From NCBI GenBank assembly GCA_047651235.1, contig CP178758.1, positions 3,630,001 through 3,662,000 of the forward strand: DNA of 32,000 nt, in the 5' to 3' direction. Shown here piece after piece: positions 3,131-21,071 of this stretch. Under the pieces are notes generated by a model that was not told where the DNA came from, made no database searches, and saw only the letters and a program-made list of their open reading frames with translations. Positions within the stretch are counted from its first letter, which is position 1. Every line of letters begins with the position of its first letter. This DNA is from Candidatus Electrothrix yaqonensis (GTDB lineage Bacteria; Desulfobacterota; Desulfobulbia; Desulfobulbales; Desulfobulbaceae). The translations under genes were made by a program, and so were the position numbers.

Positions 3131-3143
3131 TTGGTTGTATATC

Positions 3144-3542
3144 ATGTTGTCGCGGCTTTTAAATGGCCTGCTGGGAGGAATTGGGCTGGTGATGCTCTTC
3201 TTGCTAGTTAAGGCTTTTCTTGAACAAATACTCCACATAGAATTCAATCAGACAACAATCTGCCTGATATCATTTTTATTGTTGTTCTTCGGAATAGTGA
3301 CGGCTGGCTGGGCTGGATTACTTCACGGGTTTTACTTGCCTTGCCGTCGTACATGGAAATCAATGAATCTGTATAACACGGCGATATGTTGGCTACCAGT
3401 TATTATTATGGTGTTCGGCCTTGATCAGGCACTTTACAAGTTAGGTGGTGACGAACTTACTCGCATTACCATGATGATAACTGTATCATTATGGGGATTG
3501 TATTTTATTGTTTCAATCGATAGTCAAAACTATGGACTTTAG
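3144..3542 (+). CDS. Small polytopic membrane protein, possibly the detached C-terminal part of the NACHT gene
   Basis: ORF 3135..3542 with ATG at 3144. It has about 4 hydrophobic helices (LLGGIGLVMLFLLV, ICLISFLLLFFGIVTAGWAGLL, ICWLPVIIMVFGL, MMITVSLWGLYFIV). It is in the same reading frame (mod 3) as the NACHT ORF. No recognisable family. Confidence 0.5.
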   Translation: MLSRLLNGLLGGIGLVMLFLLVKAFLEQILHIEFNQTTICLISFLLLFFGIVTAGWAGLLHGFYLPCRRTWKSMNLYNTAICWLPVIIMVFGLDQALYKLGGDELTRITMMITVSLWGLYFIVSIDSQNYGL

Positions 3543-4040
3543 TCCAAGACTTTTAGTAGACTCTCATTTATGAGGCCTTATAGAAAATCATCGTACAACG
3601 TACATGACTTGAAAGTTCACCTGATTTGGATAACAAAATATCGTTACAAAGTGTTAAGTAAAGATATAAGTATTCGAATCAGAGAGATAATACGCCGAAT
3701 ATGTGATTCGAAAGATATTCAAATTATCAAAGGGAATATCAGTCAGGATCATGTCCATATCTATGTGTCATATCCTCCCAAAATATCCGTGAGTGAAATG
3801 GTGCGATTTTTCAAGGGTCGCTCTTCAAAAAAGATTCAGGAAGAATTTCCTCAACTGTCCAGAAGATACTGGGGAAAACATTTTTGGGGTATTGGCTGCG
3901 TTGCTTTGAGTTCCGGACACGTTACTGATGAAATGATACGGAATTATATTGAAAATCACAGAAATGACCCAAATCATAATAATGACGATTTTAAGATAGA
4001 ATAACGACTTTCAGTCGTTACACACTGACTTGAGTCAGCG
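3530..4040 (+). mobile_element. IS200/IS605-family insertion sequence (tnpA only)
   Basis: A Y1 HUH transposase gene is flanked by subterminal hairpins that share a GACT..AGTC core: GGACTttAGTCC (3534-3545), AACGACTttcAGTCGTT (4003-4019) and CTGACTtgAGTCAG (4025-4038). The element is AT-rich relative to its neighbours. Confidence 0.8.
3570..4004 (+). CDS. tnpA: IS200/IS605 family transposase TnpA (Y1 HUH)
   Basis: 144 aa. Contains the HUH motif (DHVHIYV) and a C-terminal catalytic Tyr region (MIRNYIENH), plus the typical LIWITKYRYKVL N-terminus. Confidence 0.92.
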   Translation: MRPYRKSSYNVHDLKVHLIWITKYRYKVLSKDISIRIREIIRRICDSKDIQIIKGNISQDHVHIYVSYPPKISVSEMVRFFKGRSSKKIQEEFPQLSRRYWGKHFWGIGCVALSSGHVTDEMIRNYIENHRNDPNHNNDDFKIE

Positions 4041-5240
4041 GTTTTAATTCTACTTTGGCACTCACAAAGGCTGTGGTAATAATTTGCAATTCCGTTGTTT
4101 CTCATATGCGAAATCAATCGAAGCTTGCCTCTTTTCATGCCGTTGACGAAGCTGTCTTATAACTTCATCTTCGTTTACATCTCGACGTGGAAGAATTGAC
4201 TTGAGTAATGTTGTTATATCAGCGCAACTCAATAACGGGACACCGACTTGATGGTATAATCGTTGCTCGACCATAAACAACATGGCCATCATGACCATAG
4301 TCATATGATGATGCCAAGCCAGCCATCCCCGAGCCTGATAATCACCCATTCCACATTCATTTTTTGCATCCTGAAATGGCCGTTCAACCCAATATCGTTG
4401 AGCTTGCATATATGCAAGTCGTCTTGTTGACGTGTTACTTTCCGCATTACTTAGGCTATATTTAATTTTTTTCGGGGACTTAACCTCACGTCTGACAACT
4501 AATTCTACTTTGGTGACCATACCATTAACTATTTAATAATATTAATAATACTAAAAACAGGGGTTTTTAAATACTTAATAAAAATAAGCTAGTTATGTTT
4601 ATGATCGCCAAAGTAGAACTACTTGACAGTTGTCGGTTTTACCAAGCTGCCCGCACCATTGACGAGAAACCCCAACAGACATTTTACCCTTTTTGGGTAT
4701 CCCGGATTCATCAATAAAAAGAGCGCTATCTTCCTTTCCTCCAAAAATGTTATCCGCATCTTTAGCTACTTGGTTGTTTACAGGACGCCAATCCCAGTTC
4801 GATTCGGAAAGAAAATACTGGAGGGGCTCATATTTAACGCCCGGAACCTTTTCCTCCATACGTTCCATGTTTTTTTGTCAGCCTGGAATAAACCTTTCAA
4901 GTATTGGAATGCTTTATCTGACAAACTTACCGTATGTCTCTTAAAAAAATGATGATATCTTTCGTGAAAAGACGTAAGTTGCCGGGCGATGCCGGTCAAC
5001 TCAAAGAATTTGTCATGGGGACTTCTTTTTTCGGGGCTGGGAGCGTTCATAAAAAGAATAAAGTTATAATCAGGGCGATTGACGGGTATTTTTTTGATAG
5101 CTGTTATCAGGTGCTAGCTTGATCAAAAAGCGATAAAATTTTCCTAATGAAAGATACAACTTTATCCGGATATTGTAAGAAGTTTTTACAAATAGATCAA
5201 AAGGTTATGGTTGACAAAGTAGAATTACTTGGCAGAGAGT
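4041..5240 (-). mobile_element. Decayed IS701-like insertion sequence
   Basis: Outer inverted ends are AATTCTACTTTGG (4046-4058) and CAAAGTAGAATTACTTGGCAG (5217-5237). The interior holds three transposase fragments. A second, inner pair of the same 13-bp motif (4503-4515 and 4607-4619) brackets a roughly 90-bp AT-rich filler. Confidence 0.7.
4062..5050 (-). pseudogene. IS701-family DDE transposase, frameshifted and internally deleted
   Basis: The fragments are ORFs 4778..5050 (N-terminus), 4599..4868 (containing FIDESGIPKKGKMSVGVSRQWCGQLGKTDNCQV) and 4062..4520 (C-terminus, containing YWVERPFQDAKNECGMGDYQARGWLAWHHHMTMVMMA). They overlap in different frames, and the central part of the protein is missing. 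Confidence 0.75.
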
Positions 5241-7384: not shown

Positions 7385-7710
7385 TTACTGTCGCCAGCGA
7401 CTGATGAACCCTCCACTTTCTGCAGAAATACCTGCAGTTCAGGTGAACTGGATTGAGCTGAACCTGAACGCTGCAGCGTGATAGCGGCATCACCCTCCCA
7501 CACCATTCCCAATTCTGACCGAACAGAATCGTCCTGCGCATAAGTGCGTCCAGCTTTTTCTACAAAGAGCTACAACCGGTATTTTGGCTGCAGGCACCCT
7601 CATGAAGCGCATGTTTGGGCGCCAGTAAATCTTCTTATAAAAAATTAAATATTAAATAGAGAACATACCCCTTCCGTCTAATATTATTTTCGATTCAGAG
7701 TATTTTTTTC

Positions 7711-7739
7711 TTGACGCCGTATTTAATATTTTATATCTT
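7711..7739 (+). promoter_or_regulatory. Sigma70-like promoter with an AT-rich UP-like element
   Basis: TTGACG, 17 nt, TATCTT. It is preceded by AAAAAATTAAATATTAAATA and conserved in copy 2. This is a sequence prediction only. Confidence 0.4.
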
Positions 7740-7820
7740 AAGATAAAGAGAAGCTATATCGGTCATTCATTATCCGGCTGCAGCAGCTCAATTTACGAAC
7801 ATAAAAAACTACATAATTCT

Positions 7821-7994
7821 ATGGCAGCGCTTATTCAGTAATAAGTAGGCACCGTGCTTTCCGGTCAGAAACGGAAAGCTGAATAAAGCCACAACCGTCG
7901 CGAGGCGGTGTCGGAAAACTACGGGTCTCCAGAGAGGAGACAGCCGGGTTACCTGCTTTTTCCATTTCACTTTTATACCGGGAGGTAAGTTATG
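7821..7994 (+). promoter_or_regulatory. Conserved structured 5' leader (candidate cis-regulatory RNA or riboswitch), copy 1
   Basis: By my reading it is 100% identical to 12965..13138. Hairpins: CTTATT/AATAAG; GCTTTCCG-GTCAGAAA-CGGAAAGC (7856-7879); CCGTC-GCGA-GGCGG (7895-7908, GNRA loop); GTCTCC-AGAGA-GGAGAC (7925-7941). These are followed by AGCCGGGTTACC and then GGGAGG-N6-ATG (7992). Confidence 0.45.
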
Positions 7995-8247
7995 AAATCT
8001 CCAAAAACAGTATCCCGCCACATTATCTGCCCCCCTTCAAGCTGTACCGGCAGATTTTTCCCTTTATTTTTTAAAAAAAGGAATTGTAGTTTCGCCGATT
8101 CGTTGAGCACCCGCTGCTGCGGATCAGCATAACTATACTTTTCTATACTTTTTGATCGTTTGTTTTTCTGAACAAAAAACTGTGCCTGTAACTGTTATCT
8201 GCACAACCCGACAATAGCTATCCTTATTAACAAGGAGGAGAGATCGA

Positions 8248-11200
8248 ATGAAAAAAAATACATTAACCGCATTATGCCTGGCATCATTGATGCTTACCGC
8301 ATCTGCTGCCCAGGCTCAAGAGACAGCGGATACCGCGAGCTGTGAGACAGCATATGCCTTTGGCAGCAGGGCATTGAGTGAAATTCCCGACCTCAAAAAT
8401 GCACGATGGGGATGGGAAATTATCCTGAACGGAAACGATGCATTAGTTACATCGATTTATGCCGGTGCCGGAGGGGAAGATACCACAAAAGGAGCCTATA
8501 TAGGCGATCTTCGGATTGACAGAAATGACGATCTGGTCACCCTGCAGCTCGATATACTGGAGGGAATATCTCTCAGCGAAACGCATATTTATGTAGGAAC
8601 AGAGGATGTCCCCACAACAGCAAATGGAGGATATGCAAGCCTTACGCAGCAGATAGGAAGACTCGATTCATACGGCAACGGCCTGTATAAAGTTCAACTG
8701 AATGACGAGACCCTCAATGTCGATAAGCTGTATGTTGTTGTTCATCTTAACGCGTGCAAAGGCGGCGATGATCCAAACACAAACACGGAATGCGGTGCCG
8801 ACAGCCCGTGGAAAGGACCGTGGGACAATGCTGTAGAATACAAATCAGGTGATGTTGTTGGATATGAAGGCAGCAGCTATGTCAACGTCTGCTGCGAGGA
8901 GACACCAAGCATAGCAGGCATAGCACCTACTGCCGACTTGTTCGATCCTTTTACTGAGGAAGGTTGCTGGAAACTCGTAGCTGAGAAAGGCGAGCAGGGT
9001 CCTGAAGGCCCCGAAGGTCCGCAGGGTGAAACCGGTCTGACTGGCGATACAGGTCCGCAGGGTCCGATTGGTCCGGTAGGCCCGCAGGGTGATCAGGGTG
9101 AAGTTGGTCCGCAGGGTCCGATTGGTCCGGTAGGTCCGCAGGGTGAAACCGGTCTGACTGGCGATACAGGTCCGCAGGGTCCGATTGGTCCGGTAGGCCC
9201 GCAGGGTGATCAGGGTGAAGTTGGTCCGCAGGGTCCGATTGGTCCGGTAGGTCCGCAGGGTGAAACCGGTCTGACTGGCGATACAGGTCCGCAGGGTCCG
9301 ATTGGTCCGGTAGGTCCGCAGGGTGAAACCGGTCTGACTGGCGATACAGGTCCGCAGGGTCCGATTGGTCCGGTAGGCCCGCAGGGTGATCAGGGTGAAG
9401 TTGGTCCGCAGGGTCCGATTGGTCCGGTAGGTCCGCAGGGTGATCAGGGTGAAGTTGGTCCGCAGGGTCCGATTGGTCCGGTAGGTCCGCAGGGTGAAAC
9501 CGGTCTGACTGGCGATACAGGTCCGCAGGGTCCGATTGGTCCGGTAGGTCCGCAGGGTGAAACCGGTCTGACTGGCGATACAGGTCCGCAGGGTCCGATT
9601 GGTCCGGTAGGCCCGCAGGGTGATCAGGGTGAAGTTGGTCCGCAGGGTCCGATTGGTCCGGTAGGCCCGCAGGGTGAAACCGGTCTGACTGGCGATACAG
9701 GTCCGCAGGGTCCGATTGGTCCGGTAGGCCCGCAGGGTGATCAGGGTGAAGTTGGTCCGCAGGGTCCGATTGGTCCGGTAGGTCCGCAGGGTGAAACCGG
9801 TCTGACTGGCGATACAGGTCCGCAGGGTCCGATTGGTCCGGTAGGTCCGCAGGGTGAAACCGGTCTGACTGGCGATACAGGTCCGCAGGGTCCGATTGGT
9901 CCGGTAGGCCCGCAGGGTGATCAGGGTGAAGTTGGTCCGCAGGGTCCGATTGGTCCGGTAGGTCCGCAGGGTGAAACCGGTCTGACTGGCGATACAGGTC
10001 CGCAGGGTCCGATTGGTCCGGTAGGCCCGCAGGGTGATCAGGGTGAAGTTGGTCCGCAGGGTCCGATTGGTCCGGTAGGTCCGCAGGGTGAAACCGGTCT
10101 GACTGGCGATACAGGTCCGCAGGGTCCGATTGGTCCGGTAGGTCCGCAGGGTGAAACCGGTCTGACTGGCGATACAGGTCCGCAGGGTCCGATTGGTCCG
10201 GTAGGCCCGCAGGGTGAAACCGGTCTGACTGGCGATACAGGTCCGCAGGGTCCGATTGGTCCGGTAGGTCCGCAGGGTGAAACCGGTCTGACTGGCGATA
10301 CAGGTCCGCAGGGTCCGATTGGTCCGGTAGGCCCGCAGGGTGATCAGGGTGAAGTTGGTCCGCAGGGTCCGATTGGTCCGGTAGGTCCGCAGGGTGAAAC
10401 CGGTCTGACTGGCGATACAGGTCCGCAGGGTCCGATTGGTCCGGTAGGCCCGCAGGGTGATCAGGGTGAAGTTGGTCCGCAGGGTCCGATTGGTCCGGTA
10501 GGCCCGCAGGGTGAAACCGGTCTGACTGGCGATACAGGTCCGCAGGGTCCGATTGGTCCGGTAGGCCCGCAGGGTGATCAGGGTGAAGTTGGTCCGCAGG
10601 GTCCGATTGGTCCGGTAGGTCCGCAGGGTGAAACCGGTCTGACTGGCGATACAGGTCCGCAGGGTCCGATTGGTCCGGTAGGTCCGCAGGGTGAAACCGG
10701 TCTGACTGGCGATACAGGTCCGCAGGGTCCGATTGGTCCGGTAGGCCCGCAGGGTGATCAGGGTGAAGTTGGTCCGCAGGGTCCGATTGGTCCGGTAGGT
10801 CCGCAGGGTGAAACCGGTCTGACTGGCGATACAGGTCCGCAGGGTCCGATTGGTCCGGTAGGCCCGCAGGGTGATCAGGGTGAAGTTGGTCCGCAGGGTC
10901 CGATTGGTCCGGTAGGTCCGCAGGGTGAAACCGGTCTGACTGGCGATACAGGTCCGCAGGGTCCGATTGGTCCGGTAGGTCCGCAGGGTGAAACCGGTCT
11001 GACTGGCGATACAGGTCCGCAGGGTCCGATTGGTCCGGTAGGCCCGCAGGGTGAAACCGGTCTGACTGGCGATACAGGTCCGCAGGGTCCGATTGGTCCG
11101 GTAGGTCCGCAGGGTGAAACCGGTCTGACTGGCGATACAGGTCCGCAGGGTCCGATTGGTCCGGTAGGCCCGCAGGGTGATCAGGGTGAAGTTGGTCCGC

Positions 11201-12111
11201 AGGGTCCGATTGGTCCGGTAGGTCCGCAGGGTGAAACCGGTCTGACTGGCGATACAGGTCCGCAGGGTCCGATTGGTCCGGTAGGCCCGCAGGGTGATCA
11301 GGGTGAAGTTGGTCCGCAGGGTCCGATTGGTCCGGTAGGTCCGCAGGGTGAAACCGGTCTGACTGGCGATACAGGTCCGCAGGGTCCGATTGGTCCGGTA
11401 GGCCCGCAGGGTGATCAGGGTGAAGTTGGTCCGCAGGGTCCGATTGGTCCGGTAGGTCCGCAGGGTGAAACCGGTCTGACTGGCGATACAGGTCCGCAGG
11501 GTCCGATTGGTCCGGTAGGCCCGCAGGGTGATCAGGGTGAAGTTGGTCCGCAGGGTCCGATTGGTCCGGTAGGCCCGCAGGGTCCGAAAGGTGATACCGG
11601 CGAATACCCGTTAGGTCAGTGTGACTTCGGTCAGATTCTAACCGGTTTTAATTCCAACGGTCCAATCTGCGAAGACATACCGGTCAACCTGATTGGCGGC
11701 TGCGAAACAGCCTTCGCTCACGGTGATAGAACATTGAATTCCTTCCTTGATACAAACCGGTGGGGATGGGAGATCACTGTAAATCCAGGACAAACGAAGA
11801 CAGGTATCCCGATTTATGCCGGAGCGGGACAGAATGACACCAGCAAGGGAACCCAGGTAGGCGAACTGACTGTAGCCTACACAGGAAACACGGTAACCGT
11901 TACCTACACCATGACAGCAGATGAGATCATCATGAAGGAAACCCATCTGTATGTGGGTGAGGAAAGTGTCACAACTGCAGCACCTGGCCAGTACGGTCTG
12001 CAGGATGAAGGTTTGCTCAATGCAACCACTGATAGCTATACAGTAACTGTCAGCGGCACAAAGTCGGTCAAGGTCGTCGCTCATGCTGTAACCTGTACAA
12101 AAGCGGACTAA
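8248..12111 (+). CDS. Giant secreted collagen-like (Gly-X-Y) protein with the same Cys-bracketed globular domain at both ends
   Basis: 1287 aa. AAGGAGGAG lies upstream of the ATG. Signal peptide: [24 protein letters not shown]-terminal domain 8341-8757. A CBM5/12-like W..W..Y..GDVV.Y.GSSY segment follows. There are 873 uninterrupted G-X-Y residues (8989-11607), then a Cys knot [19 protein letters not shown], then the C-terminal domain 11701-12096. Confidence 0.9.
9025..11580 (+). repeat. In-frame tandem array of 43 units: 26 of 63 nt ([22 protein letters not shown]) and 17 of 54 nt ([19 protein letters not shown])
   Basis: All unit boundaries were checked against the sequence. The order is ABABAABBAABABAABABAAAABABABAABABAAAABABABAB. 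Units of one type are almost identical; the only variation seen is GGC/GGT at one Gly codon. Blocks 9790-10626 and 10627-11463 are an 837-bp duplicate pair. Confidence 0.95.
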
Positions 12112-12144
12112 CAGCGCAGACTGACGGTTAGGATTAAAGCGAAA

Positions 12145-12176
12145 GGAGCAGATCCGAAAGGGTCTGCTCCTTTTTT
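12145..12176 (+). terminator. Rho-independent terminator of collagen-like gene 1
   Basis: GGAGCAGATCC-GAAA-GGGTCTGCTCC followed by TTTTTT. Confidence 0.8.
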
Positions 12177-12178
12177 GG

Positions 12179-12345
12179 TTCCGGTAACTGCCTGCGGCAG
12201 CTTCGCTTTACTTTGACACTGAGAAGTATGTTCCGACCGCCGCCTGAATTTACAGCTTCAAGTAAAACTCAGTGCGGCGTATTTGATGAGATACTGCAGG
12301 TTGCTGCATTGGGTAAAGAAGATAATATGTGATGGAGCCAGAAGG
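12179..12345 (+). repeat. Downstream cassette module, copy 1
   Basis: Matches 16704..16882. Only 3 substitutions in the first ~148 nt (GTTCCGGTAACTGCCTGCGGCAGC...GGGTAAAGAAGAT); identity decays after that. Confidence 0.9.
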
Positions 12346-12360
12346 GAGGAAATTACTCAG

Positions 12361-12453
12361 CTGATGTTACGCACGCAAATAAAAGATCAGTAAGTTACGA
12401 GACACCCAAAACGTGGAATCTGCCGATTTTGCGTTTCGGCTGCGTAACATCAG
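12361..12453. repeat. MITE-like or hairpin element with 13-bp perfect terminal inverted repeats
   Basis: CTGATGTTACGCA (12361-12373) pairs with TGCGTAACATCAG (12441-12453). It shares the GTTACGCA core with the neighbouring element. Confidence 0.6.
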
Positions 12454-12516
12454 TTACAGAGTTAAAAAAGTATAGCTTCCGAAATCCGGTTACCACAACA
12501 AATCTAAGAAGCTGAG

Positions 12517-12631
12517 GGAGTTACGCAGTTGAGAATAAGAAACTCAAGTGTTACAATAGGTTCCTCTTTTAGAGACACAAAACCGTCAGTTGAACAAAAT
12601 CAACGGGTTGTAGATCTAACTGCGTAACTCC
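12517..12631. repeat. MITE-like element with 14-bp perfect terminal inverted repeats
   Basis: GGAGTTACGCAGTT (12517-12530) pairs with AACTGCGTAACTCC (12618-12631). The internal segment 12575-12611 recurs, inverted, at 18647-18673. Confidence 0.65.
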
Positions 12632-12853
12632 TAAAGCTGTTTGAAAAACATGCTTCTAACAATACAGTTTCCGGGATAGATGTTGCAACCGGTATTTTGA
12701 CTGCAGGCAGCCTTATGGACCGTATGGTTGAGCATCAGTAAATCTTCTGTATTTTGCCAAGGTTACGTATCCTGAATATATAAAAAATTAAATATTAAAT
12801 AGAGAACATACCCCTTCCGTCTAATATTATTTTCGATTCAGAGTATTTTTTTC

Positions 12854-12882
12854 TTGACGCCGTATATAATATTTTATACTTT
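12854..12882 (+). promoter_or_regulatory. Sigma70-like promoter, copy 2
   Basis: TTGACG, 17 nt, TACTTT, with the same UP-like AT tract as copy 1. Confidence 0.35.
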
Positions 12883-12964
12883 TAAGATAAAGAGAAGCTG
12901 TATCGGTCATTCATTATCCGGCTGCAGCAGCTCAATTTACGAACATAGAAAACTACATAACTCT

Positions 12965-13138
12965 ATGGCAGCGCTTATTCAGTAATAAGTAGGCACCGTG
13001 CTTTCCGGTCAGAAACGGAAAGCTGAATAAAGCCACAACCGTCGCGAGGCGGTGTCGGAAAACTACGGGTCTCCAGAGAGGAGACAGCCGGGTTACCTGC
13101 TTTTTCCATTTCACTTTTATACCGGGAGGTAAGTTATG
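12965..13138 (+). promoter_or_regulatory. Conserved structured 5' leader, copy 2
   Basis: Identical to 7821..7994 and ends at the same SD-ATG (13136). Downstream sequence diverges after the codons MKSP. Confidence 0.45.
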
Positions 13139-13558
13139 AAATCCCCACCAGCAGTATTCAACCGTAGTATCCCTTCAGTCGTACCCGTAGGTCTTCCGAC
13201 CGCAGACCGCAGTTCCTGTCTTCTTCCTGTTCAGTCAGGAAAGAAATCTCAGTCTGATTATCAGGACAATGCCGAGTACCGGCACGTCCGACTCAGCCTA
13301 TACTGTTCTTCGGTATAATCTGAGCTTTTACAGAGGCTGAGCTGCAGCTTTAATTTAAATTTAATTCATTAACGAACAGGAGAGTACGACCCCGGAAAAA
13401 CGCGATGTATTCCGGTGACACTCCGTATTTTTCAGCTTTGTTTTTAAAAAGAACAGACCCTTAATCCGTCTGAATAGGATCATACCGACTTTTTGATCTG
13501 TACAGATAAACTAATCCCCTGCCTCAGTAAGAGGCAAATAAAAAAAAGAGGAATGATA

Positions 13559-16500
13559 ATGAAGAGAAAAAACGTGTTGACAGCGTTATGTCTGGCATCT
13601 CTGATGCTTACCGCGTCTGCTGTCCAAGCAACAGGCCCCACTGAGCAGGAACTGCAAGCTTGCAATGAAGCAAAGAATATTGAAGATTGCAAGGAGCATG
13701 TGAGGGAGCTGGCGAAGGCTCGGGAAGAGAAGTTGAAGCAGAAAGAGCTGGACCGGGAAGAGAAGCTGAAACAGAAAGAGCTGGACCGGGAAGAAAAGCT
13801 GAAACAGAAAGAGCTGGACCGGGAAGAAAAGCTGAAACAGAAAGAGCTGGACCGGGAAGAGAAACTGAAGCAGAAAGAGCAGGAGTGGGTGAAGAAGAAG
13901 GAGGAGGAGTGCGAGAATCCTAAGGAGAAACCTAAGGATAAGCCTAAGAACCCCCCTAATGACAACCCTGGTCAGAAGCCTACGGCCGGGAAGGATTGCC
14001 AGACGGCGTATGCCTTTGGAGACCGGACAGATGCCAATCCTAATGATGCGGCAGTATATCAATCCGCTGACGGAGAGCTTGATACTTATCTGGGAGATCA
14101 GGTGCTTAACGAGTTGCCGGGTCTCAAGCCGAATCGGTGGGGATGGATGCTTTCCATCTTTAATGGGGATGAGTTTACTGTACCGATCTATGCCGGTGCC
14201 GGAAAAAACGATATTGCAAGGGGCACCCATGTTGGAAATCTGACAGTTATCTACAAGGAAGGTCTGTTAACCGTATCTTTTGGTATGTTTGAAGGATTTT
14301 CTTTGAATGGAAGCCATTTGTACGTAAATAACGGAATAAATGACGGAGAGGAGCATGTGCCCACCTCCGCACCGGGCAGATATGATGACTACAGTATAGG
14401 AAACCGGACATTCGATTCCGCTACAGATACATATACCGTGGATCTTGGAACAGCAGACTTTCCATCTTCTTTATATATTGCTGTTCATAGCGTAGTTTGC
14501 GAAGGAGAACAAGGTGGAGGACAAGGCGGAGGAGGAGACTGCACTATATGCCCGGCAGGGCCGAAAGGTGAGAAAGGTGATCCGGGTATCCAAGGCCTCG
14601 AAGGTCCGCAGGGTCCGATTGGCCTGACTGGTCCGGAAGGCCCGGAAGGCCCGCAGGGTATCCAGGGTGAAACAGGCCCGGAAGGCCCCGCAGGTCCGCA
14701 GGGTCCGATTGGCCTGACTGGTCCGATAGGCCCCGAAGGCCCGCAGGGTATCCAGGGTGAAACAGGCCCGGAAGGTCCCGCAGGTCCGATAGGTCCGGAA
14801 GGCCCGCAGGGTATCCAGGGTGAAACAGGCCCGGAAGGCCCCGCAGGTCCGATAGGTCCCGAAGGTCCGAAAGGCAAAAAGGGCAAAAAAGGTGATCCGG
14901 GCATCCAAGGTCCTGAAGGCCCGACTGGTCCGGAAGGCCCGCAGGGTATCCAGGGTGAAACAGGCCCGGAAGGTCCCGCAGGTCCGATAGGCCCGGAAGG
15001 CCCGCAGGGTATCCAGGGTGAAACAGGCCCGGAAGGCCCCGCAGGTCCGATAGGTCCCGAAGGTCCGAAAGGCAAAAAGGGCAAAAAAGGTGATCCGGGC
15101 ATCCAAGGTCCTGAAGGCCCGACTGGTCCGGAAGGCCCGCAGGGTATCCAGGGTGAAACAGGCCCGGAAGGTCCCGCAGGTCCGATAGGCCCGGAAGGCC
15201 CGCAGGGTATCCAGGGTGAAACAGGCCCGGAAGGCCCCGCAGGTCCGATAGGTCCCGAAGGTCCGAAAGGCAAAAAGGGCAAAAAAGGTGATCCGGGCAT
15301 CCAAGGTCCTGAAGGCCCGACTGGTCCGGAAGGCCCGCAGGGTATTCAGGGTGAAACAGGCCCGGAAGGCCCCGCAGGTCCTCAGGGTCCGATTGGCCTG
15401 ACTGGTCCGGAAGGTCCCGAAGGTCCGCAGGGTCCGATTGGCCTGACCGGTCCGGAAGGCCCCGCAGGTCCGCAGGGTCCGATTGGCCTGACTGGTCCGG
15501 AAGGTCCCGAAGGTCCTCAGGGTCCGATTGGCCTGACTGGTCCGGAAGGCCCCGCAGGTCCTCAGGGTCCGATTGGCCTGACTGGTCCGGAAGGTCCCGA
15601 AGGTCCGCAGGGTCCGATTGGCCTGACCGGTCCGGAAGGCCCCGCAGGTCCGCAGGGTCCGATTGGCCTGACTGGTCCGGAAGGTCCCGAAGGTCCGCAG
15701 GGTCCGATTGGCCTGACTGGTCCGGAAGGTCCCGAAGGTCCGCAGGGTCCGATTGGCCTGACTGGTCCGGAAGGTCCCGAAGGTCCGATTGGCCTGACTG
15801 GTCCGGAAGGTCCCGAAGGTCCGCAGGGCATCCAGGGTGAAAAGGGCGACAAAGGTGATCCTGGCCAGGTAGTAATTAATGTCGGTAACTGTCCAGAAAA
15901 TCAGGTTATGACGGGTATTACCGTCGTGGATGGAGAATTAAGAGTAATCTGCGAGGAGTTCTGCAACTTCACCTGCAGCAGCCAGCCTGTCTGCGGCAAT
16001 GGCATTAAGGAGACAGGTGAAGAGTGTGACGACGGAAACATTTTGAATGGAGACGGTTGTTCCTCTACCTGCACCGATGAGCCAACAGGTGATATTCAGC
16101 CCGGAGACTTCCGGACACAGACGCAGGGCGGATGGGGCCAGGACGAATGCAATGGCGGCAATCCTGCATGCTACCGCAACGATAACTTCGACACATGTTT
16201 CAGCAACGGCCTGATCGTCGGTGACCCGGATGGTCCTGACAGCGACACTTCGTACGCACTCGAACTGACATCATCGGCAGCGGTAGCAGGTTCCCTGCCA
16301 GCTGGCGGTTCCTCCAAGGCACTTACTGCGGACTTCACTGATCCCGGTAACTTGAACCAGATAACAGGTGTATTGGGCGGACAGCTCGTAGCCGCCACGC
16401 TCAGCGTGACGTTCGACAGGTGCGACACCGATTTCGGAGCCAGCAATGAAGAACTCGGCAACTTGGTCTATGCTGCGAGTGCATGTATTAATATGACGGT

Positions 16501-16645
16501 TGATCAGGTGCTTGCTGAAGCGAATACGATCATCAGCGGTGGCGCAAGTACCTTCACCCCAAGCCAGATCAGTGATTGTCTGGCCACCCTGAATGAGTGC
16601 TTCGTGGACGGAACTCAGACGTGCAATAATTTTGTACTGCCGTAA
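13559..16645 (+). CDS. Secreted multidomain collagen-like protein (charged repeats, Cys-bracketed domain, 438-aa G-X-Y region, Cys-rich repeat, C-terminal domain)
   Basis: The start is set at ATG 13559 (AGAGGA 6 nt upstream) because this gives [24 protein letters not shown], parallel to gene 1. The tracked ORF begins at 13493. Layout: [11 protein letters not shown] x5, a PK-rich linker, the domain at 13997-14500, G-X-Y at 14558-15871, then [27 protein letters not shown], then about 185 aa of C-terminal domain. Confidence 0.9.
13721..13885 (+). repeat. Five tandem 33-nt in-frame repeats encoding [11 protein letters not shown]
   Basis: Units begin at 13721, 13754, 13787, 13820 and 13853. The last is degenerate ([11 protein letters not shown]). 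Confidence 0.9.
14558..15871 (+). repeat. Collagen-like G-X-Y coding repeats with 198-bp and 90-bp higher-order periods
   Basis: There are 146 uninterrupted triplets. GGTCCGAAAGGCAAAAAGGGCAAAAAAGGT ([10 protein letters not shown]) recurs at 14864, 15062 and 15260, a 198-bp period. [30 protein letters not shown] (90 nt) repeats from about 15379 to 15780. Confidence 0.9.
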
Positions 16646-16669
16646 AAAGAACCTTAGTTAAGGAGAAAA

Positions 16670-16703
16670 GGGGCGGACTCGAAAGGGTCTGCCCCCTTTT
16701 TTT
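16670..16703 (+). terminator. Rho-independent terminator of collagen-like gene 2
   Basis: GGGGCGGAC-TCGAAAGG-GTCTGCCCC followed by CTTTTTTT. Same design as the terminator at 12145-12176. Confidence 0.8.
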
Positions 16704-16882
16704 GTTCCGGTAACTGCCTGCGGCAGCTTCGTTTTACTTTGACACTGAGAAGTATGTTCCGACCGCCGCCTGAATTTACAGCTTCAAGTAAAACTCAGAG
16801 CGGCGTATTTGATGAGATACTGCAGGTTGCTGCATTGGGTAAAGAAGATGATGTGTTGATGTATGAGCCGGAGGGAAGTAAC
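16704..16882 (+). repeat. Downstream cassette module, copy 2
   Basis: Matches 12179..12345. Confidence 0.9.
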
Positions 16883-16887
16883 ACTTG

Positions 16888-17247
16888 TCAGTTATCATCC
16901 TCTGTTTGCCCCTCCTGCAGTGCGCTTTTTGTTTTTTCCCGCTCTGAGGAATCATGCCCCTCCGGCGCATCGTCGGAGGCCGTCTGCTCTTCCATAGCAG
17001 AATCCACGGAATCCGATTCTATCGGCTCCGCCACGCCTGCAGAAACACCTGCAGATTGTTTTGCCAAGGCGCTTTTCACATCCTTTGACAGGGCCTCGTC
17101 ACCCAGCATATTCTGCAGCAGTCTGTCGTCAAGAATAGTCTGCTGGTGAGACTGGGAAAAATTGCGCAGCCTCCAGATAAGCCACAGCAGCGATATAACC
17201 AGAAGTCCTACCAGACCAAGAAAAATTATCCAGATAAGATCACCCAT
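16888..17247 (-). CDS. Small single-pass membrane protein with an acidic, low-complexity tail; last gene of the mla operon
   Basis: 119 aa. It has an N-terminal TM helix (IWIIFLGLVGLLVISLLWLIW) and a D/E/S-rich C-terminus. It starts 44 nt downstream of mlaC on the same strand. The overlapping plus-strand ORF 16739..17149 is Ser/Cys-rich and looks like an antisense artefact. Confidence 0.55.
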   Translation of the reverse strand: MGDLIWIIFLGLVGLLVISLLWLIWRLRNFSQSHQQTILDDRLLQNMLGDEALSKDVKSALAKQSAGVSAGVAEPIESDSVDSAMEEQTASDDAPEGHDSSEREKTKSALQEGQTEDDN

Positions 17248-17291: not shown

Positions 17292-17930
17292 TTATTCGTC
17301 CTCTTCCCCGGCCTCCAGTTTTTTGATCTTTTCCTCCAGCAGGGAAATCAGACCGGGAAATTGTTTGTCACGCAGTACGCTGCGGATTTGTTCCATATAG
17401 TTACGGACCAGACTGATACCCTCCACCACAATGTCATAGGCCATCCATTTATCCTTTCTCAGGATCATAATATAGGAGACCGGAATGCTTTTGTCGTCTC
17501 CGACAAACAGGCTCTTGACCTCGGCCCTGTCCTTCCGTATCCGCTGGTCTGTAAACTCAATCTTTTTCTCCAGGAAATCATCAATCTGGCCGATGTAGAC
17601 ATACTGCAGCAGCTTGGTGAACAAAGCGATAAACTGCTCCTGCTGCTCTTTATTCAGGGTTTGCCACTGTTTGCCCATAACCCTTTTGGACATCTCATGG
17701 AAATCAAAATGGTCCGAAACCATTTTGACGATATGGTCACATTGCTCGGCAACCGGCCGTTTCCGGAATTCCTTATCCTTCAGCTGGGTAACGACTTTTT
17801 CTACAACCGGCTTCAGCTGTTCTGTCGGATCCGGAGGCGCTGCCGCCGCATTACGGATCCCGTCAGGGACAACAGGCAGAGCAAGAAAGAAAAAAAGAAA
17901 AAAAACTATATTGTACCGAGAGATAAGCAT
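17292..17930 (-). CDS. mlaC: Periplasmic phospholipid-binding protein MlaC (Ttg2D/toluene-tolerance family)
   Basis: 212 aa with a signal peptide. Family-typical segments: FDFHEMSKRVMGKQW, QQEQFIALFTKLL and MAYDIVVEGISLVRNY. It sits within the mla operon. Confidence 0.85.
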   Translation of the reverse strand: MLISRYNIVFFLFFFLALPVVPDGIRNAAAAPPDPTEQLKPVVEKVVTQLKDKEFRKRPVAEQCDHIVKMVSDHFDFHEMSKRVMGKQWQTLNKEQQEQFIALFTKLLQYVYIGQIDDFLEKKIEFTDQRIRKDRAEVKSLFVGDDKSIPVSYIMILRKDKWMAYDIVVEGISLVRNYMEQIRSVLRDKQFPGLISLLEEKIKKLEAGEEDE

Positions 17931-18051
17931 GGTTTCACCTTTTGTTGCTTTGTTGCCAGCGGCACCGCAGACCGCCTTTGTTATTTATTCGTCTTCTGCA
18001 GGAATTAAGGAGCATTCATAAATTGCTCATAGCTATGCGGTACCGTTAATA

Positions 18052-18534
18052 TTACTCATAACGTCGGAAGACGAATTCGCTGAAGATACCGGGAGAAAAT
18101 CCTGATATTCTTTTTTTATTTAATGTAGCATGTGCATTTTTCATTACATATTGATTGATGTGTACATCAGAAAATTTATCACCATCACATGGTGGATTTA
18201 TTTCTATGTATTCGCTTTGGAATTTTCCAATACTGTACATTATTTTAACAGTTGTATTGTCCGACCCGACAACAGATATAAGAATTTTATTTTTGAATCT
18301 TCGCCATCGAATTCTATCTGTATCGCTGTTGTACCATTTCGATATACCGCTTGGATCAGAAACAAAAACATATAATTTATTTTTTGGAGAAAAATATTTA
18401 AATGACGCAAAATGATATCCTCCGATATTAGCGTCAGCGTATCTATAAAGTTCGGCACGGGATTGTGCAAAGCTAAAGGTTGGAACTGAAAAAACATATA
18501 ATGTTATGATTATTGTAATGATTCTCTTGAACAT
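18052..18534 (-). CDS. AT-rich secreted hypothetical protein inserted in the mla operon
   Basis: 160 aa. Signal peptide MFKRIITIIITLYVFSVPTFSFAQS, with GGAGG upstream of the ATG. It is visibly much more AT-rich than mlaA and mlaC on either side. No family recognised. Confidence 0.6.
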   Translation of the reverse strand: MFKRIITIIITLYVFSVPTFSFAQSRAELYRYADANIGGYHFASFKYFSPKNKLYVFVSDPSGISKWYNSDTDRIRWRRFKNKILISVVGSDNTTVKIMYSIGKFQSEYIEINPPCDGDKFSDVHINQYVMKNAHATLNKKRISGFSPGIFSEFVFRRYE

Positions 18535-18646
18535 GTTTTTTTTCCTCCTTTCATCATTAAAAGATATTTAGCCCATATCTGGAATCAATACTGAAGGCTA
18601 TGTTAATATTTGCGAATTCAATATTAATTTCAGGTGTATTGGATTC

Positions 18647-18740
18647 ACAACACGTTGATTTTGTTCAACTGACAGTTTATGCCTATAAAAAATTAAGCTA
18701 TTATAATAATCGAGCTTCTTGTTTTTAACTGCGTAACTCC
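18647..18740. repeat. Degenerate third copy of the GTTACGCA-type MITE-like element
   Basis: AACTGCGTAACTCC (18727-18740) is identical to 12618-12631. Segment 18647-18673 is the reverse complement of 12575-12611 with one or two mismatches. The element abuts the mlaA stop codon. Confidence 0.55.
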
Positions 18741-19606
18741 TATTCTGATGCCGAAGCACCCCACATCTGCTCACGATGCTGAAAATAACCGTCCCGGACA
18801 GCCACATAGGGATCAAAACTTACATCCTTCATCTTTTCATATTCACCGAGATGCAGCGACAGATTGTTGACTTCCTTGCCGATATAAATCCCTGTTGCCT
18901 CTTCCCATCCGGCAGCCCAGAAGTAATATGGTGTCACGGCAAATCTATCGACAGTTATACCGGCCGCATCCCGCAGTGTCGAGGGCCCCATGACAGGAAT
19001 GACAAGATAAATACCGTCCTCCACGCCCCAATTCGCCAAGGTCTGGCAGAAGGTTGCCTCCAGGGGGGCAAACCCCATCGTGGCTGCGGGGTCACCGAAT
19101 CCTGCAATCCCGCCGGTCGTGTTGAGCAGAAATCTGGTCAGCACAGTGCCGGCATCGGAAAATCTGGCCTGCAGCAGCGTATTGAGCAAACGCATCGGCT
19201 CCTGCAGATTATGAAAAAAATTTCCTACAGCGCCCCGGATATCCGACGGAACAACTTCACTGTATCCGGTGGCAAGCGGATTCATGACCCATGTGAAGGC
19301 ATAATCATTAAAGGTAAAAACAGCCCGATTAATCTCTTCAAACGGATCATCTACTGCATAGACTTCAGGGCCCGCTTCTTCATCATAAAATGCATCGTCA
19401 AGAAAATCTATTTCTTCTGCATCCCCATCTTCTTCATCATCCGCATAAGCCGTGTTGTCAGAGGGGGGCAACTCTATTTTTTCTTCTCTTCCTTTTTCCT
19501 CTTCCTCCGCATAGACCGAGCTGCTCAAGGGTGACAACAAGCCGTAGCCGAAAGCAGAACAAAAACACAGACTGACAAGGAGCACTACATTTTTTTTTCT
19601 CATCAT
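18740..19606 (-). CDS. mlaA: Outer-membrane lipoprotein MlaA (VacJ family)
   Basis: VacJ-family core: DPFEEINRAVFTFNDYAFTWVMNPLATGY and, further on, GFGDPAATMGF. The start is set at MMRKKNVVLLVSLCFC (19606) rather than the tracked 19672. It has an unusual acidic E/D-rich insert after the signal sequence. Confidence 0.85.
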   Translation of the reverse strand: MMRKKNVVLLVSLCFCSAFGYGLLSPLSSSVYAEEEEKGREEKIELPPSDNTAYADDEEDGDAEEIDFLDDAFYDEEAGPEVYAVDDPFEEINRAVFTFNDYAFTWVMNPLATGYSEVVPSDIRGAVGNFFHNLQEPMRLLNTLLQARFSDAGTVLTRFLLNTTGGIAGFGDPAATMGFAPLEATFCQTLANWGVEDGIYLVIPVMGPSTLRDAAGITVDRFAVTPYYFWAAGWEEATGIYIGKEVNNLSLHLGEYEKMKDVSFDPYVAVRDGYFQHREQMWGASASE

Positions 19607-19704
19607 GCAATCAGGCCGGCTCGGCGCGCCCCCTCCATTTAGAGCCCCGCAGCTGCGGGAAACAATGAACAACGATGAACAAAAAATCAGGAAGTATGAA
19701 AAAA

Positions 19705-20154
19705 CTATTTTACCCCGCCGAAAGCAAATTTGGAAATCAGCGACTCCAGATCAACTGCCGACTCGGTATCCACAAGCAGATCTCCGGCCTGATAATACTC
19801 CTCATCACCGCCGGGGGTAAGCTGAATGATCTTGTCGCCGATAATCCCCTGGGATTTCACCGACGCCATAGAATCCTTTGCCAACTTCACCTTGTTATCC
19901 AAGGTCATGGTCACCACGGCCCTGTCATATTCATTCAGCTGTATTGCGGTGACCGACCCCACAGTCACCCCGGCTATCTGCACCTCAGCACCATTTTTTA
20001 TCCCGGAAATATTTTCAAATTCCGCATTCAGGGCATATGTACTGCCTGCATTCAACCAGGAAACTTCACCGAGCTGCAACGCCAGCCAGCCGAAGGCGGC
20101 GAAACCGAGAACAAGAAAAATACCGACTGCAATTTCCAAACGGGAATTATTCAC
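19705..20154 (-). CDS. mlaD: MCE-domain protein MlaD
   Basis: 149 aa. An N-terminal TM anchor (IAVGIFLVLGFAAFGWLAL) is followed by an MCE domain (GIKNGAEVQIAGVTVGSV). Confidence 0.88.
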   Translation of the reverse strand: MNNSRLEIAVGIFLVLGFAAFGWLALQLGEVSWLNAGSTYALNAEFENISGIKNGAEVQIAGVTVGSVTAIQLNEYDRAVVTMTLDNKVKLAKDSMASVKSQGIIGDKIIQLTPGGDEEYYQAGDLLVDTESAVDLESLISKFAFGGVK

Positions 20155-20239
20155 GGGATACTCCTCAGGCTACAAATTCAAGTTACAAATTTAAATATCC
20201 GGATATTATCGGCTGATCAGGCTTCTCCGGCATCAGCTT

Positions 20240-21052
20240 TCACAGCAGATTTCCGAGCGTCATTTCGGCAAATTCACGGATATGCGGTTTTTCCGAGTCC
20301 CTGATCTGCGCAGCATCGGTAAACAGGTCCACCTCACCTTTGTTGAGCAGGACAATCTGATCAGCCAGCTCAAAAACTTTCGGAATATCATGACTGACAA
20401 TGATCGCCGTATATCCTAACCGCTGCTGCGTCCGCCTGAACAGATCATAAATTTCCTGAGTCATGACCGGATCAAGGCCAGTGGTCGGCTCGTCAAAAAG
20501 AACGATCTCCGGGTCAAGCTGCAAAGCCCTGGCCAGTCCGACCCGTTTTTTCATGCCGCCGCTGAGCTGAGCCGGAAATTTGTTTTCATGACCGGTGAGT
20601 TCCAGCGTTTTCAGAGTGGCGGCAATCTGCTCCTGAATCTCCTGTTCCGTCAGCTTGGTCCGCTCCCGGAGCGGCAGGGCGATATTTTCAAACACAGAAA
20701 GCGAGTCAAACAGCGCTGCTCCCTGAAAAAGCACACCGAACTTGGTGCGCAGTTCACGGAGTTTTCTGCGGCCCATTCGGGTGACATCCTGTCCGTCAAC
20801 CAGTATCCGACCGCTGTCCGGTTTCAGCAGACCGAGAATCAGCTTCAGATTGACGCTTTTTCCCTGTCCGCTGCCGCCGGCAATCACCGTGGTTTTTCCA
20901 CGGGGCACGGAATAACTGATCCCGTGCAGCACCCTGTGCCGCTGGGTTCGTTCGCCGAATGTCTTGATAACGTCAATAAATTCAACTGCCGGTGTGTCCG
21001 GCTGATCTGTCTGACTTTCGCCTGCCTGTTTCTTTTCCTGTTCAGCAGCCAT
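20240..21052 (-). CDS. mlaF: ABC transporter ATP-binding protein MlaF
   Basis: 270 aa with Walker A GGSGQGKS, signature LSGGMKKRV and Walker [12 protein letters not shown]. It carries an N-terminal extension of about 20 aa. Confidence 0.9.
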
Positions 21053-21071
21053 GCTTCCCTACCTTTCTTTC

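Follow-up and report, generated by a model that had tools for sequence, protein, structure and literature searches.

The window examined here, a 32,000-nt stretch of the Candidatus Electrothrix yaqonensis genome (contig CP178758.1), contains two genes for collagen-like proteins (Table 1). The locus raises the question of whether a single Cys-bracketed domain (hereafter the head) occurs three times in these proteins and caps both ends of the first, as an earlier note had proposed, and what such a rod might be for.

Table 1. Features of the two collagen-like loci, with positions relative to the window.
Feature	Position	Strand	Details
Regulatory cassette upstream of protein 1	7636-8013	+	promoter-like site, riboswitch, Shine-Dalgarno and ATG
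c-di-GMP-I (GEMM-I) aptamer, protein 1 leader	7878-7956	+	RF01051, 55 bits (gathering 35), E 2.6e-8
Protein 1	8248-12111	+	1287-aa collagen-like ORF, head at each end; PF01391 Collagen, E 3.1e-129
Sec-type signal peptide, protein 1	8248-8316	+	23 aa, read from sequence
Head copy A	8341-8757	+	protein 1 aa 32-170, Cys to Cys
CBM5/12-like Cys-rich module	8791-8982	+	aa 182-245, between head A and collagen; PF02839
Collagen region, protein 1	8989-11607	+	aa 248-1120, 291 unbroken Gly-X-Y triplets
Cys-bracketed beta-hairpin, protein 1	11620-11670	+	17 aa, directly after collagen; AF2 strands 12-18 and 21-26
Head copy B	11701-12096	+	protein 1 aa 1152-1283, Cys to Cys; stop codon four residues later
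Intrinsic terminator after protein 1	12145-12176	+	hairpin and T-run; RNAfold dG -24.2 kcal/mol
Second regulatory cassette, upstream of protein 2	12779-13157	+	blastn copy of first
c-di-GMP-I aptamer, protein 2 leader	13022-13100	+	RF01051, 55 bits (gathering 35)
Protein 2	13559-16645	+	collagen-like paralogue, about 1030 aa; in-frame ATG also at 13553
Head copy C	13997-14500	+	protein 2 aa 149-316, Cys to Cys; 25-aa insertion after first strand
Collagen region, protein 2	14558-15871	+	146 unbroken triplets, about 125 nm; PF01391, E 6.2e-63
Cys-bracketed hairpin, protein 2	15890-15952	+	21 aa, after collagen
Cys-rich acidic repeat, protein 2 (DUF4215 / myxo_disulf_rpt)	15992-16072	+	TIGR02232
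'QTQGGWG' domain, protein 2	16103-16642	+	C-terminal; second unannotated family
Intrinsic terminator after protein 2	16670-16703	+	RNAfold dG -22.7 kcal/mol

Three homologous copies of the head domain

The three head segments are homologous copies of one domain. Pairwise BLASTP was significant for copies A and B (E=1e-23, 44% identity over 100 aa), A and C (E=3e-26, 32% identity) and B and C (E=1e-28, 36% identity), and a family HMM recovered exactly three copies from the six-frame translation of the window (8335-8769, 11695-12114 and 13991-14509; i-E 1e-33 to 2e-49). As the earlier note had read them, the nucleotide ranges translate exactly to segments with a Cys at both ends, and the shared motifs CETA[FY]A, RWGW, IYAGAG, HxYV, [AP]G.Y and a final H...C are all seen in the three-way alignment.

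The AlphaFold2 model of the head is all-beta (pLDDT 89.9). Among 279 family domains, the first and last Cys are both present in 231, the last only in 11, the first only in none and neither in 37. This co-occurrence supports the predicted first-to-last disulfide, by which the head is probably closed from its first residue to its last. A second, inner Cys pair (both in 209, one or the other in 2 and 3, neither in 65) varies independently of the outer pair; the copies in the window keep the outer pair and lack the inner.

A large family of exported domains

No match to the head was found in Pfam or NCBIfam at E<=1, and a profile scan of 107 head members found no family common to them. Profile searches of the PDB gave best E values of 0.027 and 1.3, whilst Foldseek returned nothing significant against the PDB (best E 7.6e-3, TM<=0.3) and a best E of 3e-3 against BFVD (TM<=0.45). 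A C1q/TNF-like jelly-roll of the BclA type was rejected as an identity for the head, since neither this nor any other trimeric head was among the Foldseek matches. The family therefore cannot be named, as had been suspected, and, with homology significant, the three segments are neither unrelated nor members of a characterised Pfam family with a known function.

A profile search of clusters placed 4011 50%-identity cluster representatives in the family at E<=1e-3 (982 at E<=1e-30), and many of these proteins contain 2 to 12 head copies. Source names include Desulfobulbaceae cable bacteria, Flavobacteriaceae, Bacteroidales, Gemmatimonadota, Polyangiaceae, Steroidobacteraceae, Saprospiraceae and Entotheonella. 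The members are mostly small exported proteins or lipoproteins, with signal peptides or lipoprotein leaders, and two (P0114 and P0119) carry T9SS sorting domains. Copy B shares 85%, 83% and 67% identity with the C-terminal copies of other Electrothrix-type sequences, compared with 39% to copy A; copy A in turn shares 57% identity with its N-terminal counterpart in Ca. Electronema halotolerans. In a neighbour-joining tree without bootstrap, N-terminal and C-terminal copies mostly cluster by position, with the exception of two metagenomic N-copies and one Electronema C-copy. The spread over several phyla and the grouping mostly by position bear out the suggestion of an old family rather than a recent duplication. 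The head is an all-beta domain of old origin, about 130-170 aa long, extracytoplasmic and without annotation. A family of thousands of clusters in several phyla, lacking a Pfam, NCBIfam or PDB entry, is now defined, with a fold predicted confidently and a disulfide map that the Cys counts support.

Architecture of the two proteins

The signal-peptide coding DNA of the two genes is 84% identical (blastn). In protein 1, head A is followed by a Cys-rich module for which PF02839 is the only or best Pfam match in four orthologous segments (22.0-26.1 bits against a gathering score of 26.2, E 8.6e-6 to 1.7e-4). The module contains the motif W.G.WD....Y..GDVV.YEGSSY and weakly matches the CBM repeats of PDB entry 3wx7. 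The collagen region is built from 26 units of 21 aa and 17 units of 18 aa, and the tandem units span 2.6 kb at 91-99% identity; assembly of such near-identical units, 117-297 nt long, may have changed the number of repeats. At 0.286 nm per residue the 291 triplets give a rod of about 250 nm, the length proposed earlier.

Protein 2 probably starts at ATG 13559, since ATG 13553 lies too near the Shine-Dalgarno sequence. Its Cys-rich acidic repeat, which matches the pappalysin repeat, scores above the cut-off of TIGR02232 (44.5 bits, cut-off 20.8) and just under that of PF13948 (26.3 bits, cut-off 27; E 9e-6). The C-terminal 'QTQGGWG' domain has 22 homologues, none with a Pfam domain over that region, and a confident AF2 model (pLDDT 94.7, pTM 0.91) with no Foldseek match in the PDB (best E 5.4).

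The order of parts in protein 1 recurs, around a shorter collagen, in two metagenomic proteins that are complete, P0125 (616 aa) and P0158 (498 aa): a signal peptide comes first, then a head, the CBM5/12-like module, the collagen, the Cys hairpin and a second head. Other Electrothrix and Electronema sequences contain C-terminal fragments with collagen, hairpin and head, and collagen length among homologues ranges about eight-fold, from 110 to 873 aa. The earlier claim of the same head at both ends thus holds beyond this genome. Its further claim, that this is unusual for bacterial collagens, stands for one and the same domain at both ends; non-collagen domains at both ends as such are usual (PMC8968730).

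The repetitive collagen of protein 1 could have led two collagen genes to be fused during assembly. The contigs of other genomes do break inside such repeats, and the exact sequence of protein 1 is not on record elsewhere. However, the reading frame is open through all 291 triplets, and a single promoter and riboswitch precede the gene, with a single terminator behind it. Moreover, P0125 and P0158 each lie whole on one contig and keep the order of protein 1; the double-headed layout is therefore not an accident of assembly, and we consider a fusion artefact highly improbable.

The Cys-bracketed hairpin also follows the collagen in P0125, P0158, L008, P0001, P0002, P0004 and P0010, as it does in protein 2, and it is a candidate for trimer registration. 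This bears on whether the heads are ligand binders, or mainly trimerisation or nucleation caps for the triple helix, like the Scl V domain or the BclA C-terminal domain. An adjacent trimerisation domain is a general requirement of bacterial collagens (PMC8968730), and two heads are suitably placed: only about 20 residues separate the end of head C from the collagen of protein 2, and the collagen of protein 1 is followed after about 30 residues by head B. Head A, however, is parted from the collagen by the CBM-like module, and the hairpin, conserved at the C-terminal end of every collagen region, is the better candidate for registration. The distribution of the family is likewise unfit for an obligate trimer: amongst 258 proteins inspected, only 5 contain collagen, 159 have a single head and 90, small lipoproteins included, have two tandem copies per chain. 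Coupled with the lack of a trimeric head among the Foldseek matches, this makes it rather unlikely that the heads serve mainly as caps.

Riboswitches and transcription units

The two regulatory cassettes are 97.4% identical over 379 nt (blastn), and the promoter-like site TTGACG-17-TATCTT at 7711-7739 has its counterpart at 12854-12882. Both aptamers span positions 1-87 of the 87 in RF01051 and so are full-length. The protein 1 leader aptamer scored 63.7 bits against the variant model RF03168, below its gathering score of 65.9, whilst relatives of the window aptamers pass the variant model RF03167. Canonical c-di-GMP-I aptamers contact the ligand through G20, A47 and C92 (Vc2 numbering). In the alignment, the unpaired position that precedes the GC pair is a G, and the AGC segment is kept; if these correspond to G20 and to the segment containing C92, the residues would suit c-di-GMP better than the cGAMP type with A20.

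Family genes in Ca. Electronema PJ, Ca. Electronema JC and Ca. Electrothrix aarhusensis are likewise preceded by riboswitches of the same clan; none was found upstream of the homologues in L009, L013 and L014. In E. aarhusensis the 3' strand of the aptamer doubles as the 5' half of a strong terminator hairpin (dG -22 kcal/mol, z -4.7, U8), so that ligand binding should prevent termination (an ON switch). The switches in this window may follow the same logic. Here, each aptamer is succeeded by a Shine-Dalgarno sequence and ATG opening a short, non-conserved ORF, and the collagen ORF starts 256 nt (protein 1) or 423 nt (protein 2) further on. The terminator copy after protein 2 shows compensatory changes relative to that after protein 1. 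As predicted from these elements, each collagen gene is its own transcription unit, comprising promoter, c-di-GMP-I riboswitch, long leader, ORF and terminator. Cable bacteria are thereby linked to cyclic-dinucleotide riboswitch control of exported fibrous proteins, on which no paper was found in the literature searched.

Proposed function of the rods

Typical bacterial collagen-like proteins are trimeric stalks on which functional non-collagen domains are displayed, and adhesins of other bacteria are controlled by c-di-GMP riboswitches. By analogy with these systems, the reading we favour, which we judge slightly better than an even bet, is that of a c-di-GMP-induced, trimeric, multivalent tether or adhesin. 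At high c-di-GMP the riboswitch would permit expression of the rods, three parallel chains of which would zip into a triple helix, probably registered by the Cys-bracketed hairpin just past the collagen. In the resulting rod of protein 1, about 250 nm long, one end would bear three heads and three CBM5/12-like modules and the opposite end three heads. Such a rod might act at both ends as a multivalent tether or cross-linker, with a glycan-type surface ligand the most likely target. In protein 2 (about 125 nm) the same head is paired with a different unannotated C-terminal domain. Within this scheme the trimers, the ON-switch logic, the binding function, its ligand and the cellular location are inferred. 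The same head at both ends of a bacterial collagen, kept in homologues, is a geometry that fits cross-linking better than simple display.

The rods may alternatively be periplasmic structural elements specific to cable bacteria, serving for instance as struts or cross-links within the periplasm that the cells share, or where cells join. Consistent with this, and counting against the favoured reading, export features are limited to the Sec signal: neither protein has an outer-membrane targeting feature, lipobox, LPXTG motif or T9SS tail, and no secretion genes are nearby. The named collagen-bearing members of the family all come from Electrothrix or Electronema, and rod lengths of 125-250 nm match the scale of cell-envelope structures in cable bacteria. 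However, control by a second messenger suggests conditional expression, unlike a constitutive scaffold, and the eight-fold range of collagen length would not be expected of a fixed strut. The head family also extends widely among non-cable bacteria, T9SS-secreted proteins included, and the literature searched yielded no paper tying collagen-like proteins to cable-bacterium structures. We therefore think a periplasmic strut unlikely.

The tether or adhesin reading has a bolder, and doubtful, extension in which the head would be the founder of a new family of glycan- or surface-binding modules, carried by cable bacteria on c-di-GMP-switched double-ended rods that act outside the cell, crosslinking filaments to one another, to particles (e.g. 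chitin) or to partner cells. Were this so, the rods would parallel, in bacteria, the collagens that cross-link matrix, and expansion of the repeats, between 110 and 873 residues, would set their length. The proteins are testable candidates for surface or matrix regulation in filamentous, gliding, sediment-spanning bacteria.

Comparison with known systems

Animal defence collagens (collectins, C1q and ficolins) have a trimeric collagen stalk with three recognition heads, their weak binding being boosted by multivalency. Their heads are at one end only and have unrelated folds (C-type lectin, C1q jelly-roll and fibrinogen-like), and no homology is implied.

Amongst bacteria, Streptococcus Scl1/Scl2, Bacillus BclA and Legionella Lcl share with the window proteins a signal peptide, a long Gly-X-Y stalk with much Pro at X and functional globular non-collagen domains, which in Lcl include a C-terminal domain that binds glycosaminoglycans (PMC11162425). 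In contrast to these, protein 1 has the same domain at both ends, no LPXTG or other anchor, riboswitch control and a Gram-negative host, and its head is unrelated to any solved structure by sequence or Foldseek. High NCBIfam scores to SclB and Lcl arise because collagen repeats alone match. An identity as the LPXTG-anchored adhesins Scl1/Scl2 (NF038329, NF038330) was rejected, as there is no LP.TG motif and the matches cover only collagen (model positions of about 113-287). That of Lcl (NF046116) was rejected as well, the best match spanning model positions 52-268 of 431, before the C-terminal domain beyond about 270; the top 50 Foldseek PDB matches for the head contain no Lcl entry, and none is significant.

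The regulation is closest to that of adhesins under c-di-GMP riboswitches, which include V. cholerae Vc1-gbpA, whose product GbpA carries chitin-binding modules, and B. thuringiensis Bc2-cap. A documented case is CD2831 of C. difficile (PMC6447587). In these systems, as in the window, a cyclic-di-GMP aptamer occupies the 5' leader, and the gene product is exported and adhesive or, for the collagen rods, proposed to be adhesive. Unlike these three, the genes in the window encode collagen-like rods with an unannotated head, and their expression platform is unusual, each aptamer being followed by a relic Shine-Dalgarno sequence and ATG and a leader of 256-423 nt.

Two collagen rods carrying three copies of one domain

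Two paralogous, Sec-exported collagen-like proteins, protein 1 and protein 2, are encoded in the window. Both strongly matched the PF01391 collagen triple-helix repeat (E 3e-129 and 6e-63 respectively); the high scores against the NCBIfam models for SclB, Lcl and SclA reflect their Gly-X-Y part alone. Protein 1 collagen comprises 26 copies of a 21-aa unit and 17 of an 18-aa unit, and its 291 uninterrupted triplets (873 aa, 0.286 nm per residue) return the idealised rod of ~250 nm proposed in the earlier note. That of protein 2 has 146 triplets (~125 nm). An exact-sequence look-up of protein 1 gave no match; for the neighbouring aconitase gene the match was limited to one 2.5-kb Logan contig, and a plasmid search with that gene gave none.

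Features of the collagen gene region (window coordinates)
Feature	Position	Strand	Remarks
NACHT/STAND NTPase gene	1521-3047		upstream of collagen genes
IS200-like (Y1 transposase) gene	3570-4004		upstream of collagen genes
Low G+C region	3000-5000		G+C 0.39-0.40
Upstream cassette, protein 1	7636-8013		promoter and riboswitch
c-di-GMP-I aptamer, protein 1	7878-7956		RF01051, 55 bits (gathering 35), full-length model
Shine-Dalgarno and MKSP start	7980-8000		GGGAGG
Protein 1 ORF	8248-12111	+	1287 aa
Head A	8341-8757		protein 1, aa 32-170
Hairpin, protein 1	11620-11670		Cys-bracketed
Head B	11701-12096		protein 1, aa 1152-1283
Downstream block, protein 1	12142-12334		begins with terminator
Post-terminator block, protein 1	12177-12334		
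Small ORF	12213-12332		probably spurious
Upstream cassette, protein 2	12779-13157		promoter and riboswitch
c-di-GMP-I aptamer, protein 2	13022-13100		RF01051, 55 bits (gathering 35), full-length model
Shine-Dalgarno and MKSP start	13124-13144		GGGAGG
Protein 2 ORF	13553/13559-16645	+	about 1030 aa
Tandem repeats, protein 2	13721-13884		33 nt x 5
Head C	13997-14500		protein 2, aa 149-316
Hairpin, protein 2	15890-15952		Cys-bracketed
QTQGGWG domain	16103-16642		protein 2, C-terminal
Downstream block, protein 2	16667-16861		begins with terminator
Post-terminator block, protein 2	16704-16861		
Small ORF	16739-17149		probably spurious
Mla lipid-transport genes (MlaC, MlaA, ABC ATPase, MlaE)	17292-21884	-	just downstream of protein 2

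Three segments had been noted as copies of one domain, and this was borne out. The ranges of heads A, B and C translate exactly to the residues tabulated, each with Cys as first and last residue. The pairs align by BLASTP with E-values of 1e-23, 3e-26 and 1e-28 (44, 32 and 36% identity), and every motif listed in the earlier note is found in the three-way alignment. A family HMM run against all six reading frames of the window recovered these three heads and no further copy.

Cysteine columns were tabulated over 279 family domains aligned to the HMM. The first and last Cys occur together in 231, the last alone in 11, neither in 37 and the first alone in none; for the inner pair both are present in 209, only the first in 2, only the second in 3 and neither in 65. 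The domains are phylogenetically related, so Fisher p-values for the pairing are inflated. The absence of 'first only' cases is nonetheless telling, and this co-occurrence supports the first-to-last disulfide that had been predicted. The outer and inner pairs vary independently of one another, and heads A, B and C keep the outer pair but not the inner. The pattern fits C1-C4 and C2-C3 disulfides in the family. Moreover, the outer pair is shifted outward jointly in two members (P0005 and P0008), consistent with first and last strands that pair antiparallel.

The double-headed layout is conserved

A head at both ends of the rod is also found outside the window. Exactly the same arrangement runs through two complete metagenomic proteins, P0125 of 616 aa (from a 20.7-kb contig) and P0158 of 498 aa: a signal peptide, then head, CBM5/12-like module, collagen (about 210 and 110 aa respectively), Cys-bracketed hairpin, head and stop. 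Fragments from Electrothrix and Electronema agree, five of them (P0001, P0002, P0004, P0010 and L019) starting within collagen and finishing with hairpin, head and stop, and the Ca. Electronema halotolerans gene starting with signal peptide, head, CBM-like module and collagen. It is thus unlikely that the layout of protein 1 is an assembly chimera, even if the number of collagen repeats might itself be mis-assembled. Against those C-terminal copies head B shows 85, 83 and 67% identity, compared with 39% against head A; the N-terminal copy of Electronema shares 57% with head A. A neighbour-joining tree (no bootstrap) clusters the copies mostly by position, except that P0125 and P0158 (N-terminal copy of each) and P0010 (C-terminal copy) lie outside these clusters. 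On this grouping, the internal duplication seems to predate the Electrothrix/Electronema split.

The Ca. E. halotolerans orthologue of protein 1 (locus L009, 7096-8073) is broken by ~1 kb of non-collagen DNA, after which collagen resumes for >1400 aa and runs past the fetched locus. Directly upstream, at the expected riboswitch site, lies a 510-aa ORF (L009 3895-5424), suspected to be a transposase.

CBM5/12 was the sole or top Pfam match for the Cys-rich module between head A and collagen in four of four orthologues. The scores (22-26.1 bits, cut-off 26.2; best E 8.6e-6) and the presence of the family's aromatic motif point to a CBM5/12-like module rather than a classed member; matches in the PDB were weak, and a homologue search with the segment gave no candidates. 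The hairpin, C-x2-G-x-[LMV]-[TAI]-G-...-G-x2-[IV]-C, lies directly C-terminal to every collagen region seen in the protein group. The foldon of T4 fibritin is a small trimerisation element, and by analogy the hairpin may be a candidate for chain registration.

Protein 2 has further parts. Between its signal peptide and head C are five copies of an E/K-rich 11-residue repeat, each opening with R or E and encoded by the 33-nt tandem repeats, which may form a single alpha-helix or coiled-coil spacer. Past the collagen, a DUF4215/myxo Cys-rich repeat is followed by a C-terminal domain of ~180 aa with the motif QTQGGWG, a second unannotated family with 22 homologues. Its AF2 model, very confident (pLDDT 94.7, pTM 0.91), is mixed alpha/beta, and Foldseek against the PDB found no match (best E 5.4). 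In other bacteria (P0259, P0264 and P0273) this domain sits right behind a divergent head-family domain without intervening collagen, and in protein 2 the collagen hence resembles a spacer placed between the two modules.

A large head family

The earlier note could not name the head, and nor can we: Pfam-A and NCBIfam gave no match on the heads even at E<=1, 107 members scanned singly against Pfam had no family in common, and profile searches of PDB sequences were not significant. A word-indexed search found 111 relatives, the nearest in Ca. Electrothrix (84 and 82% identity) and Ca. Electronema, which points to a cable bacterium as the source of the window. When 1.84 billion cluster representatives were searched exhaustively with a profile, 4011 proteins passed E<=1e-3 and 982 passed E<=1e-30; many have two head copies and one has up to twelve. 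Named sources include Desulfobulbaceae, Flavobacteriaceae, Bacteroidales, Gemmatimonadota, Polyangiaceae, Steroidobacteraceae, Saprospiraceae and Entotheonella. Since members carry signal peptides or lipoprotein leaders, and some end in a T9SS sorting domain, the head is predicted to be an extracytoplasmic domain. The gene neighbourhoods of three Bacteroidota members had nothing in common and no riboswitch; context is therefore uninformative on function outside cable bacteria.

The main rival to a binding role is that the heads are folding caps. However, the family is overwhelmingly found without collagen, in single or tandem copies, and the separate hairpin is a better candidate for registration, which leaves folding caps a doubtful reading. 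A phage tail-fibre origin was rejected: tblastn with the head drew nothing from phage or plasmid records, and the locus has no flanking phage genes. Likewise, the collagen proteins were not taken as lipoproteins: the first Cys lies 32 residues in, past a polar stretch, and is the conserved disulfide Cys.

The commonest architecture in the family is a two-domain protein of ~340 aa (L002 5365-6420; L006 5416-6444; L007; L003; L004). Its N-terminal domain aligns only to HMM positions 58-142 and has 'ETGW..G....SWAxYF' after the HAxx strand, whereas 'CETAFA...RWGW' comes before HAxx in the head; it may be a circular permutation.

Riboswitches and flanking sequences

The flanks of the two collagen genes are much more similar than the genes themselves. 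The upstream cassettes are 97.4% identical over 379 nt, compared with 32-44% between heads at the protein level, which suggests that the regulatory cassette alone was recently copied or gene-converted; the downstream blocks are 93.8% identical. Each cassette contains a sigma-70-like promoter and a c-di-GMP-I aptamer, with a conserved G that we take, from the alignment, to be G20 of the canonical class. Each downstream block starts with a strong intrinsic terminator, with compensatory changes between the copies. Given a promoter and riboswitch upstream and a terminator downstream, each gene is predicted to be monocistronic with its own riboswitch. The ~155 nt beyond the terminators are ~99% identical and had no Rfam match; small ORFs begin there.

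In three other cable-bacterium genomes, head-family genes have a riboswitch from the same clan immediately upstream (variant model RF03167, score above gathering; a literature search on the variant name found nothing on the ligand). In Ca. Electronema PJ and JC these genes encode two-domain proteins without collagen, and in Ca. Electrothrix aarhusensis a head-collagen-hairpin protein. In the latter, the 3′ strand of the aptamer doubles as the 5′ arm of a terminator with eight U (dG -22 kcal/mol, z -4.7). The ligand-bound aptamer should block termination, from which we infer an ON switch. In Electronema, a Shine-Dalgarno and the gene's ATG fall within about 20 nt 3′ of the aptamer. Each window aptamer is likewise followed by a Shine-Dalgarno and an ATG opening 'MKSP...', which matches by homology the genuine start of the two-domain genes in Electronema (MKTTGAVF / MKSTATVL). 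The homology stops ~20 nt past the ATG, the short window ORFs (46 and 60 aa) are non-conserved, and the collagen ORFs start 256 and 423 nt downstream. The MKSP start may represent either the remnant 5′ end of a gene or a leader peptide. MFE folding of the window aptamers with the next 45 nt revealed no clear switch.

Searches upstream of the L009, L013 and L014 homologues found no riboswitch, and none turned up at the 10 mostly short loci from a metagenome scan. One apparent link in Entotheonella was treated as coincidence, the riboswitch lying downstream of the homologue and before what appears, by eye, to be an FHA-type gene.

Discussion

Taken together, the sequence data best support a c-di-GMP-induced, exported, trimeric collagen rod acting as a double-ended tether or matrix cross-linker. 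The rod would present an extracytoplasmic module of binding type multivalently at its ends, with the CBM5/12-like module added in protein 1. No secretion system was found anywhere in the window. The Sec signal is the sole export feature of the collagen proteins, as a periplasmic structural role would have it; we regard such a role as rather improbable. The tether or cross-linker reading agrees with how bacterial collagen-like proteins usually work (PMC8968730, PMC11162425).

What is new is the large unannotated head family, the conservation across homologues of one head type at both rod ends, and the link of GEMM-I riboswitches to this family in cable bacteria. In the library searched, no relevant paper linked cable bacteria with collagen-like proteins, riboswitches, c-di-GMP or diguanylate cyclase. 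Stalks of collagen-like type that bear functional end domains are a known kind, as are adhesins under riboswitch control. The V. cholerae protein GbpA is controlled by a c-di-GMP riboswitch. So is the C. difficile adhesin CD2831 (PMC6447587), and both match the proposed collagen rod in what c-di-GMP riboswitches control.
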